Positions 3,928 through 36,578 of a stretch of 64,000 bases of DNA are shown in pieces. The stretch comes from Chloroflexia bacterium (GTDB lineage Bacteria > Chloroflexota > Chloroflexia > QHBQ01). The stretch spans positions 9,214 through 73,213 of the forward strand of contig JBBROH010000002.1 in assembly GCA_038229595.1 (NCBI GenBank), written 5' to 3'. How positions within the stretch are numbered: position 1 is the first letter of the stretch; each line of letters opens with the position of its first letter. The position numbers were made by a program, and so were the translations under genes. The notes under the pieces were generated by a model. That model ran no database searches and had not been told where the DNA came from. It saw nothing but the letters and a program-made list of their open reading frames with translations.

Positions 3928-4806
3928 ATGGAACAAAGCAGCCAAAGCCAACCGCCCATCCTCTCCTACGTGCAGGTGTTTCCTCTGCTACAGGCGAAGC
4001 GGGTTGGCACCACCCACACCACCCTCTCGCTCGACCTCAACCAGACGCGGGTGGCGGTGGAGCTTGACGAGGGGGGGGTTTCGCTACCCGACGGCCAGCA
4101 CCTACCCTGGGACGAAGTGGTAAAGGTGAGCGAGGGCGGGCGCAAGGGCTTCTACAAGTGTTACACCATCGAAGGTGGCACAGCGAGGGAGATCATGATC
4201 TTTAGCGGCCAAACCAACTGGCTACGCACCCTGATCGCTACCGAGGCGGCCCCCACCATGCTGGTCAGCGGCATCGTCATGCACCGCATCAAGGACACCA
4301 ACCCGCTGGAAGACACCCGCCGCAAGGTCAAGACGATAGCCCCCCTCAGTGGCGAAGTGTTGGACACCGCCACTGGCCTGGGCTACACTGCGATTGAGGC
4401 CGCGCGTGGGGCGGTGAGCCGCGTGCTGACCATCGAGCTAGACCCCGCCAGCTTGCAGGTGGCCCGCCTCAACCCCTGGTCGCGGGAGTTGTTCAGCAAC
4501 CCGCGCATCCAACAGATCGTGGGCGACAGTTATGCGGAAGTGCCGAAGCTGGCGGATGACCGCTTCAGCCGCATCATCCACGACCCGCCCACCTTCAGCC
4601 TGGGTGGGGAACTCTACTCTGGCGCGTTCTACAAACAACTATACCGGGTGCTGAAGCGCGGTGGCAAACTCTTTCACTACATTGGCGACCTGGAGAGCAA
4701 CTCTGGCGGGCGGGTGGTACGTGGCGTACTACAACGGCTGCAAGATGCGGGCTTTAAGCAGGTGACGAAGCGGCAGGATGCCTTCGGCCTGACAGCGATC
4801 AAGTAG
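3928..4806 (+). CDS. class I SAM-dependent methyltransferase (possible RNA/N-methylase, DPP motif)
   Basis: 292 aa. LDTATGLGYTAIEAA (motif I) and IIHDPPTFS (motif IV, DPPx) typical of amino-methylating Rossmann MTases. Has an about 100-aa N-terminal extra domain. Confidence 0.55.
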   Translation: MEQSSQSQPPILSYVQVFPLLQAKRVGTTHTTLSLDLNQTRVAVELDEGGVSLPDGQHLPWDEVVKVSEGGRKGFYKCYTIEGGTAREIMIFSGQTNWLRTLIATEAAPTMLVSGIVMHRIKDTNPLEDTRRKVKTIAPLSGEVLDTATGLGYTAIEAARGAVSRVLTIELDPASLQVARLNPWSRELFSNPRIQQIVGDSYAEVPKLADDRFSRIIHDPPTFSLGGELYSGAFYKQLYRVLKRGGKLFHYIGDLESNSGGRVVRGVLQRLQDAGFKQVTKRQDAFGLTAIK

Positions 4807-15189: not shown

Positions 15190-17121
15190 TTAGCTGTTCA
15201 CCTCGCGGTACTCGCCCTCAACGGTGCCTTCGGGCGCACCGTCGCCGCTACCGTCACTGCTACCGTTGCCGTTGCTGTGAGCAGCCGAGCCGTCGGCACC
15301 GGGCTGGCCTGCGCCTGCTGCCCCGTACATCGCCTGCCCAACCTTCTGCAATGCTGGTTGCAGCGCGTCACTGGCAGCACGGATGGCGGCTGCATCTTCG
15401 CCAGCGAGAGTGCCGCGCAGGGTAGCTACCCGATCCTCAACTTCGCGCTTGACCTCAGCCGGGATTTGTTCGCCATACTCGCGCAGGGTCTTCTCTGCAA
15501 TGAAGGCGAGGGTGTCACCCTGGTTGCGGGCCTCGATCAGGTCGCGCTGCTTGCGATCCTCGTCGGCGTGGATAGCCGCCTCTTTGACCATCTTATCCAC
15601 TTCGTCCTTGCTCAGGCCCGAACTGGCGGTGATCACCACCTTCTGCTCGCGGTTGGTTGCCTTGTCCTTAGCGATCACGTTGAGGATACCGTTTGCGTCA
15701 ATGTCGAACGTAACCTCCACCTGCGGCACCCCACGCGGCGCGGGCGGGATACCGTCCAGGATGAAGCGGGCAAGGGTCTTGTTCTCGCTAGAGAGGGGGC
15801 GTTCGCCCTGGGTGACATGGATCTCCACGCTGGTCTGGCTATCGCTAGCAGTGCTGAAGACCTGGCTCTTGCTCACCGGGATGGTAGTATTGCGCTCGAT
15901 CAGCGGGGTGGCAATGCCGCCCATCGTCTCGATAGCCAGCGTCAGCGGGGTGACATCCAGCAGCAGCACGTCCTTGACTTCGCCGCCCAGCACGCCAGCC
16001 TGCACCGCTGCGCCGAGGGCCACCACTTCATCGGGGTTGATCCCACGGTTGGGGTCCTTGCCGAAGAAGCTCTTAACCTTGTCCTGCACGGCGGGCATAC
16101 GGGTCTGGCCGCCAACGAGCAACACCTGGTCGATCTTGCTAGTGTCAATGCCAGCATCCTTGAGGGCAGCCTTCATCGGCGGGATCGTCCCCTGCACGAG
16201 GTCATCCACCATCTGCTCTAGCTTGCTGCGGCTGAGATTGTAGTTGAGGTGCTTCGGGCCTTCAGCGGTAGCGGTGATGAAGGGCAGGTTGATCTCGGCT
16301 TGCTGGGTGCTGGAAAGCTCGATCTTGGCCCGCTCTGCCGCTTCCTTCAGGCGTTGCAGAGCCATACGGTCGCTGCGGAGGTCAATCCCCTCATCGCGCT
16401 TGAAGCTGTCGGCCAGCCAGTCAATGATGCGCTGGTCGAAGTCGTCGCCGCCGAGGTGGGTGTCACCGTTGGTAGCCTGCACGTCGAACACGCCCTCACC
16501 GAGGGTCAGCACGCTGATGTCGTAGGTGCCACCGCCGAGGTCGTAGACGGCAAGCGTCTCCTCACGGCCTTCCTTGTCCACGCCATAAGCTAGAGCCGAG
16601 GCGGTCGGCTCGTTGATGATGCGGAGGACTTCTAGCCCAGCGATGCGGCCCGCGTCCTTAGTTGCCTGCCGCTGGCTGTCGTTGAAGTAAGCGGGGACGG
16701 TGATCACGGCCTGGGTGACAGTTTCGCCGAGGTAGGCTTCTGCGTCGGCCTTCAGCTTTTGCAGGATCATCGCGGAGACTTCGGGTGGCGAGTAAGTACG
16801 GCCACCGAGCATCACCTGCGCGTCGCCGTTTGCCGCCTCCGTCACCTTGTAGGGGACTAGCTTGATGTCGCGCTGCACGATGGGGTCGTTGAACTTGCGG
16901 CCCATGAACCGCTTGATCGAGAAGATGGTGTTCTCTGGGTTGGTGATCGACTGCCGCTTGGCGACCTGGCCGACCAGCCGCTCGCCGCTCTTACTGATCG
17001 CTACAACCGACGGGGTGGTGCGTGCGCCCTCTACGTTGGGGATGACGGTCGCCTCGCCGCCTTCGATCACGGCTACAACCGAGTTGGTAGTGCCGAGGTC
17101 AATACCGATAATCTTAGCCAT
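15190..17121 (-). CDS. dnaK: molecular chaperone DnaK (Hsp70)
   Basis: [18 protein letters not shown]..., DLGGGTFD, full-length Hsp70 with EEVD-less Gly-rich tail. Confidence 0.95.
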
Positions 17122-20519: not shown

Positions 20520-21593
20520 GTGCCAGTGGCAAGCCAGCCAACCAACGCAAGCAGCCGCCGCAGCGTGATCACAGTCGAACACCTGAGCAAACGCTTCGGC
20601 GCGCAGGTGTCGGTCAACGACGTTAGCTTCGAGGTGTATGAGGGAGAGATATTCGGCTTCATCGGCCCCTCTGGGTCGGGTAAGACCACCACCATGCGGC
20701 TGATCACCGGCATCTACGAACCCAGCGGCGGGCGGGTGCGGATGCTCGGTCAGAACCCCCATCACTCGGCTAGCAGGCTGCACGAACGCTTTGGCTATAT
20801 GCCCCAGTTGTTCGTCCTCTACCCCAGCCTCAGCGTGATGGAGAACATGAACTTCGTTGCCTCGATCTACGGTATGCCCTGGTGGAAGCGCAAGGCGCAG
20901 GTGCGCGAGGCACTCGATTTCGCCGAACTGTGGGAGCATCGCGGCAAGTTGGCGGGCAACATCTCTGGCGGGATGCAGCGGCGGCTAGAACTGGCCGCTA
21001 CCCTCGTCCATCGCCCCACCATCATCTTCGTGGACGAGCCGACAGCGGGTATTGACCCGATCCTGCGCGCTAAGTTCTGGCAAGAGTTCCGCAAACTGCG
21101 CGATGCGGGCCGCACCCTGTTCGTCACCACCCAGTACATTGGCGAGAGCGAATACTGCGACCGGGTGGGGGTGATCAACAAGGGGCGGCTGATCGCCATT
21201 GGCACGCCGGTGGAGTTGCGCCGCCGCGCCCTCGGTGGCAGCGAGGCGATTGACCTGACGGTAGACAGCCGCCACACCTGCCCGATGCTAGAGCAGATAC
21301 TCAAGCCACTGCCAAACTATCGCGGCATTGAGGATTTGGCCCACGGCACCATCCGCGTCTACGTGGCCGACGCAGGCGAGGCCACGCCCGACATAGCGGC
21401 GGCTCTGCAAGAGGCTGGCGTAGAGGTCAAGAGCCTCAGCGAGTACAAGCCCAACTTCGACGAGGTCTTCTTCCAACTGATGGAGCAGGACGCTGCCGAC
21501 CACCCCGACGAGACGCAGGACAGCGAAGGGGTGACACTGGAGCGGCTGGAGCGGCGTAGCGACCGCCAGGCCACCAACCAGGGGAGGAAGTAG
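20520..21593 (+). CDS. ABC transporter ATP-binding protein (ABC-2 exporter ATPase) with C-terminal extension
   Basis: Walker A GPSGSGKTT. Signature LSGGMQRRLELAATL. Walker B IIFVDEPTAGID. Confidence 0.85.
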   Translation: MPVASQPTNASSRRSVITVEHLSKRFGAQVSVNDVSFEVYEGEIFGFIGPSGSGKTTTMRLITGIYEPSGGRVRMLGQNPHHSASRLHERFGYMPQLFVLYPSLSVMENMNFVASIYGMPWWKRKAQVREALDFAELWEHRGKLAGNISGGMQRRLELAATLVHRPTIIFVDEPTAGIDPILRAKFWQEFRKLRDAGRTLFVTTQYIGESEYCDRVGVINKGRLIAIGTPVELRRRALGGSEAIDLTVDSRHTCPMLEQILKPLPNYRGIEDLAHGTIRVYVADAGEATPDIAAALQEAGVEVKSLSEYKPNFDEVFFQLMEQDAADHPDETQDSEGVTLERLERRSDRQATNQGRK

Positions 21594-21595
21594 CG

Positions 21596-23164
21596 ATGCC
21601 GCTAATCAAGATGCTGGTGCGCCTCAGCGCGTTTTTGGGCAAGGAGGTAGCCGAGGTGCGGCGGCAATTGCGCCTGGTCTTTACCCTGGTGCTTGGCCCC
21701 TTCCTCATCCTCTTTATCTTCGGTATCGGCTACGTCAGCAAGCAGCAGAGCCTGACTACGATCATCGTGGGGCCGCCAGGAACGCAGGCTCGCAGTGCGG
21801 AGATCAAGAAGCAGTTTGCTGTTGAGCAACTGGACGTGCGCGAAGTGACGGAAGACCTAGGCCGGGCGATGAGCGAACTACATGACCGCCGGGTAGATGC
21901 GGTGGCGGTGATTCCCACCGACCCCTACAGCGACATCTTGGGCGGCAAGCAGGCCGAATTGCGGCTCAACGTCAACGAGATTGACCCGGTGAAGATCAAC
22001 ATCGTCTACTTCCTCACCTATGCCTACTCTAACGAACTGAACAAGCGCATCCTCGAAGCGGGCTTCAAGCAAGGGCAGGCGGGCCTTACCGACTTGCAGG
22101 GGCAGGTGGGCCAATTGCGCCAGGCGGTCAACCGCTTGCAAGCGGGCTTGCAGGCCAACGACGTGCAGGCGGTGACGAAGGAGAGTGGCGACCTGCTGAC
22201 TAGCAGCAACTCCGTCCTGGTCGTTCTCGCCGTCGCGGGCGGTGCCGTAAACAACGACCAGCTAGCAGCAGTGCCGATCAGCCCGGCAGGTCAGCAGAAG
22301 GTGGACAGCATCAACAAGGCGCAGACCGCTATCCGCCGCCTGAACGACAACGTGCAGGCGATCCGCAGCGATGCCCTGCGCGGCCAGGCGAGTCGGGAGC
22401 AGCAGGTGCAACGCCTCAAGCAGGTAGATGAAGACCTCGCTACCCTGGAAGCAACCACTGGGCAGATCACCAACATCGCCCCCGGTGTCCTGGTCTCCCC
22501 CTTCCGCGCCATCGTCAAGAATGAGGCCAGCAAGGAGGACAACTCCAACGGCGTTGAGATCAACTTCATCAACTACTACACCCCTGCCGTCCTTGCCCTG
22601 CTGCTCCAACACATCGCCGTCACCTTCGCAGCCCTCTCGCTAGTGCGTGAACGGACAATCGGCACGCTCGAACTGTTCCGCGTCGCCCCGATCCACGCCA
22701 CCGAAATCCTGGTCAGCAAGTACGTTGCCTACATCCTGTTCGTGGCCGTGGTCGGTGCTGCCCTGGTCGGTGCGCTAGTCAGCCCGCTGCTGGGCGTACC
22801 GTTCAAGGGCGACCCCGTCTGGTTCAGCCTGACCGCCCTCGCGCTGGTCTTCGCCAGCCTGGGCCTGGGCTTCTTCATCAGCCTAATCTCCCAAACCGAG
22901 TCGCAGGCGGTGCAGTTGTCGATGCTGGTGCTGCTCACCTCGGTCTTCTTCAGCGGCTTCTTCCTCTCGCTCAGCAGCTTCAACCAGTACGTGCAGTATG
23001 GAGCGCAAGGGCTACCGATCACTCACGGCATCCAGGGCTTCCAGCAGGTCATGCTGCGCGGCCAGCTACCGACCGACTACGTAATCGGCGCACTGACGAC
23101 GATGGGGCTGATCTTCTTCGTGATCAACTGGCTGCTGTTCCGCCGCGAGTTGGCTAAGGGCTAA
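21596..23164 (+). CDS. ABC-2 family permease with large extracytoplasmic coiled-coil domain
   Basis: N-terminal TM, about 280-aa soluble Gln/Ala-rich domain, five C-terminal TM helices. Translationally coupled to the ATPase. Confidence 0.7.
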   Translation: MPLIKMLVRLSAFLGKEVAEVRRQLRLVFTLVLGPFLILFIFGIGYVSKQQSLTTIIVGPPGTQARSAEIKKQFAVEQLDVREVTEDLGRAMSELHDRRVDAVAVIPTDPYSDILGGKQAELRLNVNEIDPVKINIVYFLTYAYSNELNKRILEAGFKQGQAGLTDLQGQVGQLRQAVNRLQAGLQANDVQAVTKESGDLLTSSNSVLVVLAVAGGAVNNDQLAAVPISPAGQQKVDSINKAQTAIRRLNDNVQAIRSDALRGQASREQQVQRLKQVDEDLATLEATTGQITNIAPGVLVSPFRAIVKNEASKEDNSNGVEINFINYYTPAVLALLLQHIAVTFAALSLVRERTIGTLELFRVAPIHATEILVSKYVAYILFVAVVGAALVGALVSPLLGVPFKGDPVWFSLTALALVFASLGLGFFISLISQTESQAVQLSMLVLLTSVFFSGFFLSLSSFNQYVQYGAQGLPITHGIQGFQQVMLRGQLPTDYVIGALTTMGLIFFVINWLLFRRELAKG

Positions 23165-29486: not shown

Positions 29487-29672
29487 TCACTCGTCCTCCT
29501 CGTAGGGGCAGTTGCGGCAGCCGTTGCCACAGCAGTAGCCGCGCTCAAGCAGGAACTCGCGGCAGAGCGCGCCATCAGCATCGAAGGGATAGCTGGCAGG
29601 TAGCTCCTGCTCTGCTGCTGGCGGGCTGGCGGGCTGGTTGCTCGGCTCAGGCGACGGCTTTGGCATAGTCAT
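29487..29672 (-). CDS. small Cys-rich protein (CC-x3-C-x2-C motif)
   Basis: 61 aa. MTMPKPSPEPSNQPASPPAAEQELPASYPFDADGALCREFLLERGYCCGNGCRNCPYEEDE. Overlaps the upstream gene's 3' end by 26 nt. Coding status uncertain. Confidence 0.35.
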   Translation of the reverse strand: MTMPKPSPEPSNQPASPPAAEQELPASYPFDADGALCREFLLERGYCCGNGCRNCPYEEDE

Positions 29673-30453
29673 CTTCCTTGAGCGTAGTCAACCGCGTGTA
29701 GTAGAAGCGACGTTGGAAGCGGTAGAGTATCTTCAGCGTCGCCCCACCCAGGGTCAGCACCAGCAGCAGGTTGAGGGCGGATCGCCAGAGATCGTAGGCG
29801 AACGAGGTAGCGAAGTAGAAGATGGTGAAGCGGCTGACCAGTTCGCCAACCCGCTCCAGGCCACTGCTGCTGAGGTTAGTTGCGTCGGCAGAGGCGGGCC
29901 AGAACCAGAGGTTGAGCAAGGCACCGTAGAGCAAGCCCCAGCCCAGCCCCAGCAGGCCGAGCGCAGTCAGGTTGAGGGCCATGTTAGCCTGCCAGCGACG
30001 CAGCAACCGACCGAGTAGCCCCGCACTTGCGCCTAGCCAGGCGGCAGCCAGCATCTGGTAAGGCAGCCAGGGGCCAAAGCCGCCAGTCACTATCGCCGAA
30101 ACGAAGATGGTCAGCGCGCCAAAGAGGAAGCCGAAACCCGCCCCGAACACGTAGCCGCCGACCAGCAGCAGGAAGAAGATCGGGGAGGCTCCGCCAAAGG
30201 TAGGCAGTAGCCGCAACGCGCCGTTCAGGGCCGCCAGCACCGCCAGCAGAGCGACACCCTTCGCGTCCAACTCTTGCCCCTGCACGGCACCGAGGCCAAC
30301 CACCAGCACCAGCACTCCGAGCAGCAGGGTGGCAGCCAGGGGCGGCACTGCACTGGCGAAGAAGGGCCAGAGTAGCATCGCCAGCCCCAACAGCGTGCTG
30401 AGCAGCAGGGCCAGGTTAGCGATCAGGCGGCCTTGCCCCCACTCATCCCGCAT
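29647..30453 (-). CDS. polytopic membrane protein, candidate ECF-transporter substrate-capture (S) component
   Basis: About 268 aa with six or seven TM helices. Translationally coupled to the EcfAA' gene (start overlaps its stop). No recognisable soluble domain. Assignment is by context only. Confidence 0.4.
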   Translation of the reverse strand: MRDEWGQGRLIANLALLLSTLLGLAMLLWPFFASAVPPLAATLLLGVLVLVVGLGAVQGQELDAKGVALLAVLAALNGALRLLPTFGGASPIFFLLLVGGYVFGAGFGFLFGALTIFVSAIVTGGFGPWLPYQMLAAAWLGASAGLLGRLLRRWQANMALNLTALGLLGLGWGLLYGALLNLWFWPASADATNLSSSGLERVGELVSRFTIFYFATSFAYDLWRSALNLLLVLTLGGATLKILYRFQRRFYYTRLTTLKEDDYAKAVA

Positions 30454-32086
30454 CTTGCACCCCCACATCTTGCCCCGCCATCGCCTCGGCCACCGTCAGG
30501 AACCGTCCGTTGGTCAGCTTGCCGATCTGCGAGGAGAAGATCAGCGACTCGCTGAGGACGGCGCGGGTTGGGCCGTCCACCGCGATCTCGCCCGCCGCCA
30601 GTAGGGCCACCCGGTCAGCGACTTCGGCGACCAACTCTACGTCGTGGGTGACAAGCACTACCGCCCGGCCCGCCGCCCGCAACCAGCGCAGGTAAGCGAC
30701 CAATGCCCCCTTGCTCTCGTAATCCAGCCCGCGAGTTGGCTCATCCAACAGCACCAGGGCAGGGTCAGCGACGAGCAGGGCGGCAATCGCCACCCGCTGC
30801 TGCTGGCCGATGCTAAGGTCACGCGGGTAGCAGTCGGCCAGCCCGCTGAGGCCGAGCGCAGTCAACAAATCGGCGATCCGACCCTCGTCTACCGCCAGCT
30901 TGTGGCCGCGCAGGGTGAAGCGCAGCTCGTCGGCTACCGTGTCGGCAAAGAGCAGGCTAGAGGGGTTCTGCGGCACGTAGCCAACCTGCCGAGCAATCGC
31001 GCTGGGGTCAAGCCCAGCCACGCTGCGCCCCAGCACCTGAACCGCGCCCCGCTGCGGACGCAGCAGCCCGATCAGCAGCTTGAGCAGCGTAGTCTTGCCG
31101 CTGCCATTGCGCCCCAAAATCGCCAGCACCTCGCCCCCCCGAATGTCGAAGCTGACCCCACGCAACACTTCCCGCCTACCGTAACCAAACCACACTCCGC
31201 GCAAGTCCGCACTGCCTTCCTTCGCGGCGGGCGGGGTAGGACTGGCTGGCACAGCCTCCTCCCCTCGTGCGCGGGTAGGCAGGGTGGCGGTGAGTGAGCG
31301 GGCGAACGGCCTCGCTTCGCGCACAGTGAGCGGCAGCGGCTGCCAACCTAGCCGCTTCGCCAGGGTCAGCAACGGCGGGGTGAGCGGCACCTGGGCCAGA
31401 GCCTCGCGGGGCGGCCCGTCGGCAACGATGCGCCCAGCCGCCATGTACAGCAGGCGATCAGCATACTGCACCACCCGCTCCAGCCGATGTTCAGAGAGGA
31501 TGATCGTCATGCCCAGGTCGCTGTTCAGCTTTTGCAGCAAGGTCAGCACCTCCTCCGCACTCTGCGGATCGAGTTGCGAAGTCGGCTCGTCCAGCACCAG
31601 GATGGCGGGCTGCATCGCCAGAGCCGCCGCAATCGCCAGCCGCTGACGCTCACCCCCACTCAGGCTGCTGATCGGACGAGCGCGTAGCTGGTCGAGGTCG
31701 AGTTGATGCAGCAACTCCTCTACCCGCCGCCGCATCAGCGCGGGGTCAAGGCCGAGGTTCTCCATGCCGAAAGCGACCTCGCCCGCCACCTCCTCCGTCA
31801 CCGCCTGCGCCTCTGGGTCCTGGAAGACGAAGCCGACCCTGCCGCCCAACTGCTGCGGCTGCACAGTGAGGGTGTCCACGCCGTCTACCAGCACCCGCCC
31901 GCCAAACTTGCCGCCATAGAAGTGCGGCACCAGCCCAGCGATAGCCCGCAGCAGGGTGGACTTGCCCGCCCCGCTGCCGCCAACCAGCAGCACGAACGCC
32001 CCCTCTGGCACGCTGAGGTCAACCTCGTGCAGGGCAAAGGTGGTGGCGGTGGGGTAGCAGTAACTGAGCTTTTCGAGCTTGATCAT
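30443..32086 (-). CDS. energy-coupling-factor transporter ATPase, fused tandem EcfA-EcfA' (two ABC domains)
   Basis: Two complete ABC cassettes. Walker A GGSGAGKST / GRNGSGKTT. Signatures LSGGERQRLAIAAAL / LSIGQQQRVAIAALL. Walker B LVLDEPTSQLD / LLDEPTRGLD. Start at MIKLEKLSYCYP (32086) abuts the cyclase gene stop. Confidence 0.85.
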   Translation of the reverse strand: MIKLEKLSYCYPTATTFALHEVDLSVPEGAFVLLVGGSGAGKSTLLRAIAGLVPHFYGGKFGGRVLVDGVDTLTVQPQQLGGRVGFVFQDPEAQAVTEEVAGEVAFGMENLGLDPALMRRRVEELLHQLDLDQLRARPISSLSGGERQRLAIAAALAMQPAILVLDEPTSQLDPQSAEEVLTLLQKLNSDLGMTIILSEHRLERVVQYADRLLYMAAGRIVADGPPREALAQVPLTPPLLTLAKRLGWQPLPLTVREARPFARSLTATLPTRARGEEAVPASPTPPAAKEGSADLRGVWFGYGRREVLRGVSFDIRGGEVLAILGRNGSGKTTLLKLLIGLLRPQRGAVQVLGRSVAGLDPSAIARQVGYVPQNPSSLLFADTVADELRFTLRGHKLAVDEGRIADLLTALGLSGLADCYPRDLSIGQQQRVAIAALLVADPALVLLDEPTRGLDYESKGALVAYLRWLRAAGRAVVLVTHDVELVAEVADRVALLAAGEIAVDGPTRAVLSESLIFSSQIGKLTNGRFLTVAEAMAGQDVGVQDAG

Positions 32087-32087
32087 T

Positions 32088-32741
32088 TCACTCCAAGATG
32101 GCGAAGGCGCGCACTGGGAAGCTCGTACCCCCTTCGATGGCGGGCGGCACGGCGAAGAAACGGCTGCCTTCAGCCGGTAGCTGCTCAAGGCTACAGAGGT
32201 GTTCGATGATCGGGATGCTCGCACCGAGCAAGATGGTGTGAGCAGGGCGCGATTTGTCTGTCATAGCGTCCAGGTTGGCGCAATCTATGCCGACCAGGGC
32301 CGCGCCTGCCGCCACCAATGCTTCACAGGCGGCAGCGGTGAGGTAGGGGCCGGAGCGGAAGTAGTCCCCGCCCCAGCGTTGCGCCCAGCCGCTATGCACC
32401 AACACCGCCTTGCCGCGCACTGCCAGCCCAACGAAAGCCTCTGGCCCAACCGCCCCCTCCAGGGCGACAGCAACTACGATGGCGGGCAGGTTCGCCAGCC
32501 TGTCCAGAGGCAGCTTCGCCAAATCCGCAAGGCTGGCATGGCGGTGGAAGGGAGCATCCACATAGGTACCAGTGTTGCCCGCGATCTCGTAGGTAGCAAT
32601 CTGGAAGGTCGTACCGGGGGCATAGTTGCCACGGGCCACGCTCTGCTCGTGCGTAAAGAGGATGTGGAAGCGGGGTTCTGGCACGCCAGGGTAGGAGGGC
32701 ATGGCAGGGCCGAGCGGGTGACTGAGGTCGATCAGGGTCAT
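32088..32741 (-). CDS. cyclase-family protein (kynurenine-formamidase-like metal hydrolase fold, PF04199-like)
   Basis: MTLIDLSHPLGPAMPSYPGVPEP...GNTGTYVDAPFHRH matches the HxGTHxDAPxH-type motif (first His replaced). About 217 aa. Embedded between the EcfT and EcfAA' genes. Confidence 0.6.
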   Translation of the reverse strand: MTLIDLSHPLGPAMPSYPGVPEPRFHILFTHEQSVARGNYAPGTTFQIATYEIAGNTGTYVDAPFHRHASLADLAKLPLDRLANLPAIVVAVALEGAVGPEAFVGLAVRGKAVLVHSGWAQRWGGDYFRSGPYLTAAACEALVAAGAALVGIDCANLDAMTDKSRPAHTILLGASIPIIEHLCSLEQLPAEGSRFFAVPPAIEGGTSFPVRAFAILE

Positions 32742-34552
32742 GGTTCGCTCCTTTGCAGCACGCTGGCTGCCGTCTGGTCGGGCTGGCGGGCGTGGATTAG
32801 ACTGACCAGAGCAGGGGGTAGCAGCAGCGCGCTGGTCAGCAAGGCGGGTAGGAGGTCGAAGGGCGGCCACTGCAACTGGGGGTAGGGGTAGTAGTCCAGT
32901 GGCAGGCTGCTGAACAGGCGCAGCAGGGCGAAGCTGGTGGCTACTGCCAGCCCGACCGCCAGCAGCACCCGGTCACGTGGCCGCCAGACAAGGTGGCGGT
33001 AGGCAGTGCGCCCCTTGAAGCCGGGCGGCCCATAGCCCCACGCTCGCGTTGCCAACGCCTCGGCCAACTGGCTAGCCTGCTCCAGGCTGAGGAGCAGGAG
33101 GGGGGCGACCAGGGGTAGGAGGTTGCGCGCCCGCACCCGATAGCCACGCAACTGCTGGGCCTGCTGCACGTTGCGCGCCGCCGCCACTGTCTGTGGCACA
33201 AACAGCACTGCGATGCTGGCGACCAGGCCCAGCCGCCGCAGCGGGCCGGGGATCAGGCCCAGCACCTCTCGGTGGCTAACCACCCGATTGAAGGTGGCAA
33301 AGACGGCCAGCAGGGTGAGGATGGTCAGCCCCTTGCTTGCGCCCCAGGCCAGCCCCTCGGCGGTAAGGATGCCGCCAATTGCGGGCCACTCTCGCGGGAG
33401 GGTGAGCAAAACAGTACGCCCAGCGTGCGCGGTCAAGAAGTTGAACAGGGTAATGAAGGCGAAGCTGACCACGCCCAGGCGTAGCAGCACGCTGCCCTGC
33501 TGCTGCCCCTCTAGCGGGGCGGCGCAGGCCCGATAGACGATCAGGCTAGTCAGCAGCAGCATAGCCAGATAGTAGGGGTTGCTGCCCACCGCCAGCACCG
33601 CCGCTAGCAGCCACCCCAGCCAGGCCCTGCTGTTCAACGGCTCCCCTGTTGCACCGCGCCCGACCAGCAGCAGCAGCCCGAGTAGCAAGATGATGGCGAC
33701 CGCCAGCCCCTCTGCACCACGGCCTGCGCCTGGTGGTTGGCTCGTAGCCACCAGCAGCACGTCTGCCGCCCCCGGCGTGGTCGTTGCGGTGACAACCAGG
33801 GTGGCGGTAAGCGTCGCTGCTGGGGTCTCGCTCGGTGGTGGTGGAGGCGTGGCGGTTGCTTGCGGCGTGGCGGTGGCTGCCTGCGCTGTTGTTGTGGCTA
33901 GCGTAGCCTGCCCAACAATCGGGCTGGGGCTGGGCATAGCGGTGGCTGGGGCTGGCCTAGTAGTAGCCGGGGCCGTGCGTGTCGGCGTACTGCTGGGGCG
34001 CGGCAGGCGGGTGGGGGCGTGCGTAGCAGTCGGCGGCGGGGGCTGGTAGAGGTCGGCGAAGCTGTAGAGCGGTGGTTGCTCCTTGCCACCCCAGGCCCAG
34101 CTCTCTACCGCTCCGTCGCGCACCCGATAGTCGCCTGCGCCAGAGTTGGCTAGCCGCCACTGGGCGGGCGGGCCAGCGTCGAGGTGGAAGTACCGCCAGA
34201 ACTTGCACTCTGCGCCCTGGCATTGGCAGAAGGCCGACTGGCCGGGGGGGTGGCAGCCCTCACCCTGGAGCGCGGCCACCGCGCCACCCAGACCGAGGTA
34301 GTCTATCTCTGCCTCCAGACTGGCCCGCTCAAGCAGTTCCAGCCCGCTGATGCTCTCTGTGCTGAAAGCCACCACCCTGGTCACTACGCGCCCATCTCCA
34401 TGCCGCACCACCAGAGCCGCGTGATGCAGCGGCGGGCCAACAACCGGTTGCGCGGCAGCAGCATTGCCCACAAAGAGGATCAGGGCTAGCAGGCAGAGCA
34501 GCCCTCCCCCTGCCCACTTGGGCGGCAGGCGAGAGGAACGGAATGAGGACAT
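32738..34552 (-). CDS. DUF4430 (transcobalamin beta-domain-like) extracytoplasmic domain fused to ECF transporter T component (EcfT/CbiQ)
   Basis: N-terminal signal/TM (GGLLCLLALILFVGNAAAA). DUF4430-like segment (ISGLELLERASLEAEIDYLGLGGAVAALQGEG...FWRYFHLDAGPPAQWRLANSGAGDYRVRDGAVESWAWG). About 100-aa Pro/Thr/Ala linker. C-terminal CbiQ-type membrane domain (ARNVQQAQQLRGYRVRARNL... conserved EcfT loop). Start uncertain: 34552 or 34627. Confidence 0.65.
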   Translation of the reverse strand: MSSFRSSRLPPKWAGGGLLCLLALILFVGNAAAAQPVVGPPLHHAALVVRHGDGRVVTRVVAFSTESISGLELLERASLEAEIDYLGLGGAVAALQGEGCHPPGQSAFCQCQGAECKFWRYFHLDAGPPAQWRLANSGAGDYRVRDGAVESWAWGGKEQPPLYSFADLYQPPPPTATHAPTRLPRPSSTPTRTAPATTRPAPATAMPSPSPIVGQATLATTTAQAATATPQATATPPPPPSETPAATLTATLVVTATTTPGAADVLLVATSQPPGAGRGAEGLAVAIILLLGLLLLVGRGATGEPLNSRAWLGWLLAAVLAVGSNPYYLAMLLLTSLIVYRACAAPLEGQQQGSVLLRLGVVSFAFITLFNFLTAHAGRTVLLTLPREWPAIGGILTAEGLAWGASKGLTILTLLAVFATFNRVVSHREVLGLIPGPLRRLGLVASIAVLFVPQTVAAARNVQQAQQLRGYRVRARNLLPLVAPLLLLSLEQASQLAEALATRAWGYGPPGFKGRTAYRHLVWRPRDRVLLAVGLAVATSFALLRLFSSLPLDYYPYPQLQWPPFDLLPALLTSALLLPPALVSLIHARQPDQTAASVLQRSEP

Positions 34553-34638
34553 CCCCACCCTGCCCTCCCCAGCGAGCAGGGAGGGTTCAGGGGTAGAAGC
34601 GGGCCTGATCGTGCCAGGGAGGTGCAAGCGGGTGCTTT

Positions 34639-36073: not shown

Positions 36074-36520
36074 CTAGCGGCGGTTGAGCCAGCGGCGGAT
36101 GGTGCTGGCGATGCGCTCGAAGGGAGTTTCGGGCTGCTCAAATTGGATCGGCTGGCCGCGCCACCGCTTCTCGCCGGGGGGTAGAGACGTGCGCCCACTC
36201 TGGCTGAAGTAGTAGATCACTGCGCCGATCAGGGCCAACACCGCCAGCGGCCTGAGCAGCAAGGTGATGCGGCTGGGGTCAATCGGGGAGAGGATGATCA
36301 CTAGCAGGGTAAAGATCGCCACAGCGGTGAGGATGCTACCAGGGGTCCAGCGCACCGAGCGGCGGTTCGCTTTCGGCTTTGCGGGGTTGGCGCGGTTGGG
36401 CGGCAAGGGGCGGGCTGTCTCCTGCGGGCGCGGAGCGGCACCGTTTACCTTGCCCCATCCTGCTTCCTCGGCCTTCCGCAGAATATCCTCGATCTGTTTT
36501 TCGTAACGCTGCTGTGGCAT
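36074..36520 (-). CDS. hypothetical membrane protein (two TM helices, basic/proline-rich loop)
   Basis: MPQQRYEKQIEDILRKAEEAGW... then TM helices ILTAVAIFTLLVIILS / LAVLALIGAVIYYF. Start at 36520 follows an AGGGGGA RBS. Confidence 0.45.
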   Translation of the reverse strand: MPQQRYEKQIEDILRKAEEAGWGKVNGAAPRPQETARPLPPNRANPAKPKANRRSVRWTPGSILTAVAIFTLLVIILSPIDPSRITLLLRPLAVLALIGAVIYYFSQSGRTSLPPGEKRWRGQPIQFEQPETPFERIASTIRRWLNRR

Positions 36521-36578
36521 AGCGTGATCCCCCTGTCCCTTGAGCGACATTGCTCCCCGCTAATACGATCCTTGCCTA

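Follow-up and report, generated by a model that had tools for sequence, protein, structure and literature searches.

Introduction

Among transporters of the energy-coupling factor (ECF) type, ECF-CbrT has been characterised as an importer of vitamin B12 (Santos et al., 2018, PMC5997447). Among the hydrolases of the cyclase family (PF04199), KynB of Bacillus anthracis holds one zinc ion through His50, His54 and Asp56 and the other through Asp56, His161 and Glu173, with His60 acting as the general base (PMC4243253), and the metal site of the cyclase-phosphotriesterase C-PTE is analogous to that of KynB (PMC12135135). A gene of the second kind is embedded in an operon of the first kind in the stretch of DNA analysed here (64,000 nucleotides of the Chloroflexia bacterium assembly GCA_038229595.1, contig JBBROH010000002.1, positions 9,214 to 73,213; hereafter the window), where it stands between the gene for the T component (EcfT) and that for the fused ATPases (EcfA-EcfA', or EcfAA'). 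Like ECF-CbrT, the locus combines EcfT and a pair of ATPase domains with a small S component that is an integral membrane protein, its link to B12 coming through a riboswitch. The embedded cyclase is probably a relocated stand-alone enzyme carried as a passenger, and not a transporter subunit or a dedicated corrinoid-processing enzyme. A sequence-only reading of the window had treated it as a working part of the ECF/B12 unit, a view that the comparison of loci does not support: the cyclase is present in one of 83 ECF loci, ECF genes are present at one of 80 loci of cyclase orthologues, and a B12 riboswitch is present at one of 85 orthologue loci.

The operon forms a compact gene string on the minus strand, at 29.4-36.1 kb of the window, in which the following elements succeed one another (ORF, open reading frame; AdoCbl, adenosylcobalamin; aa, amino acids):

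36065-36037, minus strand: sigma-70-like promoter (TTGACA, 17-nucleotide spacer, TATACT with a TG extension, that is, an extended -10; 11 of 12 matches)
36031-35890, minus strand: AdoCbl (cobalamin) riboswitch aptamer (RF01482, 57.7 bits against a gathering score of 50, E=5.4e-8, full-length)
35845-35811, minus strand: terminator-like hairpin and T-run (10-bp stem with 7 GC pairs, tail CTTTTGTTGG)
35784-34639, minus strand: secreted alpha/alpha-toroid protein (prenyltransferase/squalene-hopene-cyclase-like, SCO2321-like; PF13243, E=5.6e-11)
34627-32738, minus strand: extracytoplasmic SCO2322-like domain, Pro/Thr/Ala-rich linker and EcfT (CbiQ), in an ORF of 629 aa
32741-32088, minus strand: cyclase-family protein of 217 aa (PF04199, NTGTYxDxPFH subfamily)
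32086-30443, minus strand: fused EcfA-EcfA' of 547 aa with two PF00005 cassettes
about 30453-29647, minus strand: ECF S component, for substrate capture (PF12822, 37.9 bits against a cutoff of 30.7)
29672-29487, minus strand: DUF5522 ORF of 61 aa, Cys-rich (CCGNGCRNCPY) by translation, the final gene of the unit

Distribution of the ECF module and of the cyclase family

The survey centred on the ECF module comprised 83 loci with a homologue of the S component (80 metagenome loci and three contigs), among which CbiQ is encoded in 65, the SCO2322-like domain in 49, EcfAA' in 46 and the toroid protein in 37. Most related loci encode the SCO2322-like domain in a gene of its own, the usual order being toroid, SCO2322, S, T and AA'. 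A cyclase-family ORF was detected (tblastn, E<1e-4) in a single locus, L093, whose 89-97% identity to the window places it in the same lineage. In the nearest outgroups, L090 (JANXYP010000272) and L091 (JBBSEE010000004), with AA' 64% and S 58-69% identical, the genes run toroid, fused T, AA', S and DUF5522 without a cyclase, and T overlaps AA' directly, through an ATGA in L091 and over 14 nucleotides in L090. The ancestral junction was therefore coupled, and the cyclase gene is an insertion into the T-AA' junction. Furthermore, the outgroup genome JANXYP01 holds the two parts separately, namely the cyclase-free ECF operon (L090) and, on another contig among unrelated genes, a cyclase orthologue of 64% identity (L033). 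All of these relatives are metagenome-assembled genomes (MAGs) or metagenome contigs.

Viewed from the cyclase, the orthologous group is very tightly conserved, the best 120 homologues listed being 65-88% identical. Its signatures, GNTGTY[VIL]D[AS] or GTSF[PA][VI]RAF, occur in at least 599 stretches of the species-genome collection, at least 572 of which encode a relative, and the subfamily extends over Chloroflexota, Acidobacteriota, Gemmatimonadota, Steroidobacteraceae, Myxococcota, cyanobacterial MAGs and Micromonospora (Actinomycetota). A neighbourhood survey of the best 80 species-representative orthologue loci (47-88% identical, with up to about 10 kb of flanks) found CbiQ, S or toroid genes near the cyclase in one of them, L010 of the MAG GL122_UP_metabat_70, which carries an 88% identical cyclase and is fully syntenic with the window; EcfT and S were sought by tblastn at E<1e-4/1e-5, which highly divergent genes could escape. 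Likewise, R1, a covariance model built from the riboswitches of eight Rfam-positive ECF loci, placed a B12 riboswitch in one of 85 orthologue loci (1.26 Mb), again L010, and Rfam gave no RNA family in the ten nearest orthologue loci.

The orthologues have no conserved neighbour in common. Unbiased clustering of neighbouring ORFs yielded no family in more than 15 of the 80 loci, the recurrent ones being generic kinase/regulator and ABC ATPase families, with synteny that is local to clades only. The Pfam contexts differ at every annotated orthologue (among them APH/His_Phos/ferritin, Fer4/TauE, MgtE-Nramp, penicillin amidase/ABC and 3HCDH/inositol monophosphatase), and no tryptophan-catabolism gene adjoins the cyclase in any locus inspected. 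Among the observations that the sequence-only reading had itself named as speaking against its view were unrelated conserved neighbours elsewhere together with an independent promoter. Unrelated neighbours are largely what 79 of the 80 orthologue loci show; a promoter of the cyclase's own was not seen in the consensus scan of the operon. A second copy of the cyclase was not seen in the assemblies searched, the sister MAG included, among the best 80 species matches.

The closest non-syntenic orthologue, L008 (74% identical), starts 13 nucleotides after an Nramp gene, itself preceded by MgtE on the same strand (L008 1571-4929). This MgtE-Nramp arrangement may hint at a divalent-metal link, a pattern without counterpart in the other loci; the orthologue of Herpetosiphonaceae has a ferritin gene in its vicinity.

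An ABC ATPase gene stands downstream of the cyclase in three Chloroflexia orthologues. The tandem-ABC neighbours in L033 and L044 were considered as a hidden EcfAA' and rejected, the L033 gene being of the ABC-F type (ABC_tran_Xtn) with no CbiQ or S nearby. Origin by local translocation from the surroundings of the window's ABC genes at 20.5-23.2 kb was similarly dropped, because these encode an ABC-2 exporter with about 37% identity (a generic level). The pair concerned (20520-23164, plus strand) consists of a 357-aa ATPase and a 522-aa permease of the ABC-2 exporter type and is unrelated to the ECF module, the resemblance being a generic ABC match only.

Junctions and state of the cyclase gene

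The stop of T and the start of the cyclase overlap in an ATGA, with AAGGAG 7 nucleotides upstream, as read from the sequence; at the other end, the TGA of the cyclase is followed by one base and then by the ATG of EcfAA', which has GGAG upstream. Because the coupling is tight on both sides, the cyclase lies inside the predicted transcription unit, with co-transcription and translational coupling to be expected; this part of the sequence-only reading is borne out by the ATGA overlap and the TGA-A-ATG arrangement. The family assignment is secure over the whole profile (PF04199, E=3.3e-20, 73.2 bits against a cutoff of 23.1, profile positions 1-142 of 142). GTG 32870 was ruled out as the start, since the homologues are 216-221 aa long and begin with MTLIDLSH.

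A crude consensus scan found no sigma-70-like promoter inside the operon. An internal terminator isolating the cyclase was also discarded: the hairpin at 32176-32161 is weak, and terminator-like sites are as numerous as expected from shuffled sequence.

Intact copies of the cyclase gene occur in the window, L006/L010 and L093, three genomes in all, and the ratio of nonsynonymous to synonymous divergence (dN/dS) between the window and L006 (10001-10654) is 0.16, that of the neighbouring ECF genes being 0.08-0.22. The gene is hence no pseudogene, a state that would have spoken against the earlier view. Synonymous divergence (dS) of the cyclase is 0.38 and about twice the 0.16-0.22 of the flanking ECF genes, with a GC content at third codon positions (GC3) of 0.75 against 0.80-0.82; the higher dS and lower GC3 may be noise from 217 codons. 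Recent horizontal acquisition was rejected as an explanation of this composition, as the SWIM gene and the N-domain of T have equally low GC3. The nearest cyclase homologues are those of Chloroflexia, with divergence similar to that of the ECF genes.

All 59 invariant columns of a 35-sequence orthologue alignment are intact in the window copy, which is so by construction, the copy being included in the alignment. Among 121 columns with a conservation of at least 85%, eight differ in the window copy, seven of the eight changes being conservative and F193S the exception; six deviations are common to the sister (L20V, G54A, G87A, T117S, V179I and F193S). By these sequence measures, the cyclase is a functional gene under purifying selection, with no strong sign of altered function.

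Motif, fold and metal site

The cyclase motif reads N56-T-G-T-Y60-V-D62-A-P-F-H66, in which other residues stand in for the first two His of HxGTHxDxPxH. The sequence-only reading had noticed the loss of the first His alone. The complete HxGTHxDxPxH motif is absent, with D62, the general-base-equivalent H66, the distal H168 and E180 kept. In phmmer alignments, His50, His54, Asp56, His60, His161 and Glu173 of KynB correspond to N56, Y60, D62, H66, H168 and E180, respectively. By this alignment, the residues of the second metal site are conserved, as is the catalytic His, and the first (alpha-metal) site is remodelled.

The form NTGTYxDxPFH is present in 118 of the 120 homologues listed (among them the window protein and its 88% identical relative), whatever their context, and the subfamily signature extends as NTGTYxDxPFHR[HY]. 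Being fixed irrespective of context, the motif defines a subfamily, is no adaptation to this operon and carries no information on corrinoids; the altered metal chemistry that the sequence-only reading had suggested from it therefore tells nothing of a corrinoid role.

An AlphaFold2 (AF2) model of the cyclase (predicted local distance difference test, pLDDT, 85; predicted template modelling score, pTM, 0.85) matched 8F9X, 4CO9, 5NNA and 8HMO in Foldseek with template modelling (TM) scores of 0.76-0.81, probability 1.0 and E from 7e-15 to 1e-12, so that the predicted fold is that of KynB and isatin hydrolase. The motif loop itself (residues 55-65) has a pLDDT below 50; mapping of the active site on the model was abandoned on this account, as the geometry of N56 and Y60 is unreadable. 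The protein does not reach the arylformamidase equivalog TIGR03035 (59.7 bits against a cutoff of 223.05).

Regulatory leader and transporter genes

The B12 context recognised in the sequence-only reading finds direct confirmation in the AdoCbl riboswitch at 36031-35890. Promoter-like sites number two in the region against 0.7 expected, the one of the operon lying 6 nucleotides upstream of the riboswitch; the scans for promoters and terminators record consensus matches only. The hairpin at 35845-35811 is probably the expression platform of the riboswitch, judging by its place in the leader. It follows from the arrangement of the leader that the whole string, cyclase included, is a B12-riboswitch-led unit, and the succession of promoter, aptamer and hairpin points to ligand-dependent repression of the operon with the cyclase in it. 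The association is general for the module: Rfam found a cobalamin riboswitch upstream of the homologous ECF module in 8 of 8 loci tested, and R1 in 20 of 34 further ECF loci, always on the operon strand, many of the misses among the 34 being contigs that end too near on the upstream side.

Some further features were observed around the leaders. L133 has two cobalamin riboswitches (2386-2536 and 4598-4748) about 2 kb apart upstream of its ECF module, and L094 has a flavin mononucleotide (FMN) riboswitch (16277-16409, minus strand) about 4 kb past its ECF genes on the downstream side, in the orientation opposite to theirs. In the window, an ORF of 158 aa (36074-36550, minus strand) directly precedes the operon promoter; it has no Pfam match and one predicted hydrophobic segment, and ORFs of 140-148 aa occupy the matching position in L006, L090 and L091.

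The gene identities given in the sequence-only reading (EcfT fusion, PF04199 cyclase, fused EcfAA' and S component) stand confirmed by profile matches, and the locus has what an ECF transporter requires: EcfT, two EcfA-type ATPase domains and S in one operon, with profiles above their cutoffs and genes that overlap or abut. The CbiQ match (PF02361) spans residues 334-531 of the 629-aa EcfT fusion, whose start is probably the ATG at 34552 and whose N-terminal, SCO2322-like part is encoded at 33728-34627 (minus strand). EcfAA' scores 369.5 bits with TIGR04520 (cutoff 315) and 359 bits with TIGR04521 (cutoff 330), and homologues of the S component carry the database name ECF S component. The toroid gene begins at ATG 35784, preceded by the Shine-Dalgarno sequence AAAGGAG, and its product ends in an LPRTG sorting signal at the C-terminus; it matches NF053823 (SCO2321 family) with E=1.6e-18 and 66.8 bits, below the cutoff of 300. 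At the other end of the operon, the DUF5522 ORF overlaps the 3' end of the S gene, and PF17653 is annotated at the equal position in L006, L090 and L091; its product may be an uncharacterised small partner of the ECF module.

The N-domain of the EcfT fusion in the window has no Pfam match even at E up to 10, and its orthologue in L090 has a weak precomputed match to PF28005 (SCO2322). Searches of the PDB sequences by phmmer gave only squalene-cyclase-like matches for the toroid protein, nothing for the T N-domain, and no ECF S-component match for S at E up to 10. Homology of the S component to CbrT was likewise not detected by sequence search, provided that the CbrT structure is in that PDB copy. 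A link by sequence of the toroid or the T N-domain to transcobalamin or intrinsic factor was considered and set aside, as the PDB and Pfam searches gave no such match. Taken together, the toroid and the SCO2322-like domain could form a corrinoid-capture apparatus, conceivably as the two parts of a split B12 binder resembling transcobalamin.

Origin of the insertion and alternative explanations

The locus would be a dedicated cobalamin-riboswitch-controlled ECF importer, most likely for corrinoids, the substrate to which the riboswitch alone points. The insertion is present in the window genome, the MAG GL122_UP_metabat_70 and one JGI metagenome contig, and a stand-alone gene for a cytoplasmic cyclase-family hydrolase would have been relocated into the T/AA' junction in the ancestor of this narrow Chloroflexota lineage. 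The inserted ORF would keep the coupling on both sides, such that the downstream EcfAA' and S stay expressed. The enzyme would retain the housekeeping or accessory hydrolase role of its stand-alone orthologues, now as a co-transcribed, B12-repressed passenger; the same role is most likely because the conserved residues of those orthologues are kept. The gene would have been relocated rather than duplicated, and its present position would imply no functional link to the transporter.

Several considerations weigh against such a passenger. A neat insertion with an ATGA and a 1-nucleotide gap, kept under purifying selection (dS about 0.2-0.4), is tidier than a neutral accident would suggest. If the gene is the sole copy in its genome, one would hardly expect B12-repressed expression of a function that has nothing to do with B12 status, the single-copy status itself being uncertain, as it comes from incomplete MAGs and a listing of the best 80 matches. 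Moreover, the subfamily is uncharacterised, which leaves a biochemical link to B12 conceivable, and tblastn could have passed over EcfT or S genes of great divergence beside the orthologues.

The neatness of the insertion, its maintenance under selection and the placing of the apparently sole copy under B12 repression leave some probability to functional recruitment, in which a cytoplasmic amidohydrolase acts on the cargo of the importer and its placement is adaptive. CbiZ, an adenosylcobinamide amidohydrolase, is a corrinoid-remodelling amidase of B12 salvage loci, and the cyclase might analogously cleave a cobamide amide or process a lower-ligand precursor. Recruitment agrees with a gene that is co-transcribed and coupled inside a riboswitch-led operon, intact under purifying selection in three genomes and without a detected second copy in the sister MAG (best 80 matches), and with the activities of the characterised relatives KynB, isatin hydrolase and C-PTE, which are amide, lactam or ester hydrolases. 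It could also draw on the six lineage-specific changes at conserved columns, of which G54A, T117S and V179I adjoin the NTGTY motif, the TGW block and E180. Nevertheless, these changes are mostly conservative and leave the ligand and catalytic positions unchanged, the linkage is unconserved in either direction (1/83 ECF and 1/80 orthologue loci), and a B12 riboswitch is lacking at 84 of the 85 orthologue loci by R1 and at all ten of the nearest by Rfam. Furthermore, the cyclase has no detectable relation to CbiZ, PF04199 being its only Pfam match, and the literature searched for members of the cyclase family near ECF genes or riboswitches gave nothing that links the family to ECF transporters or B12. 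Recruitment is on balance unlikely, and a corrinoid-processing role for the cyclase is unsupported. Its more pointed form, in which a member of the Asn/Tyr branch was captured by a B12-riboswitch ECF operon, serves there as a cytoplasmic corrinoid-processing amidohydrolase or acts on a precursor imported alongside, and would be the first soluble enzyme between T and A genes, is decidedly improbable.

A metal-linked role, in which the Asn/Tyr subfamily requires a divalent metal, or handles one, and tends to be co-expressed with metal or cofactor importers, would account for the MgtE/Nramp genes directly ahead of the L008 orthologue and for the ferritin gene of Herpetosiphonaceae, and would suit a metal-dependent family whose alpha-metal site has been remodelled. 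These are, however, two or three anecdotes among 85 loci; no recurrent metal transporter emerged from the unbiased clustering of neighbours and no metal riboswitch from the nearest loci, which makes this role very unlikely. That the protein is a non-enzymatic structural or regulatory ECF subunit, for instance a cytoplasmic adaptor docking on EcfAA', is barely credible: tight coupling between T and AA' often reflects stoichiometric assembly and the alpha-metal His pair is lost, but D62, H66, H168, E180 and about 59 invariant residues are kept across phyla in stand-alone contexts, as befits an autonomous enzyme, and homologous ECF modules function without the cyclase.

Comparison with known systems

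The cyclase of the window resembles KynB, isatin hydrolase and C-PTE (PF04199; PDB 4CO9/4CZ1, 5NNA/4M8D and 8F9X) in fold, at 22-26% identity. It differs from them in that His50 and His54 of KynB, which are also Mn ligands in isatin hydrolase, are replaced by Asn56 and Tyr60, as they are throughout the subfamily; neither the binuclear Zn site nor the mononuclear Mn site described can form as such in the cyclase. The replacement implies a different metal site for the whole of a large uncharacterised branch of the KynB/isatin-hydrolase family, in which both alpha-metal His residues have become Asn/Tyr in at least 572 species. If the corrinoid-processing reading were true, the locus would hint at the function of that branch, and CbiZ, as a cytoplasmic amide hydrolase beside a corrinoid transporter, would be the functional analogue; no homology between the two was detected, however, and orthologues of the cyclase do not lie in B12 loci. 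As a lineage-restricted passenger, which is the preferred reading, the cyclase tells nothing general about the biology of ECF transporters or of B12.

The transporter itself departs from ECF-CbrT in its fused ATPases, the fusion of EcfT to a SCO2322-like domain, the additional toroid protein and the embedded cyclase, and also in its S component, for which none of the solved S components, that of CbrT among them, gave a sequence match. With the ECF clusters of the SCO2321/SCO2322 type (NF053823; PF28005), the locus shares a toroid membrane-anchored protein and a SCO2322-like domain beside S, T and A, although the NF053823 match falls far below its cutoff and PF28005 is matched, weakly, in L090 only and not in the window protein; none of those clusters carries a cyclase. 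The locus is thus a lineage-specific operon variant of known parts, and the widespread riboswitch-controlled ECF module with its toroid and SCO2322-like proteins is a strong candidate for a corrinoid capture and import system in monoderm bacteria.

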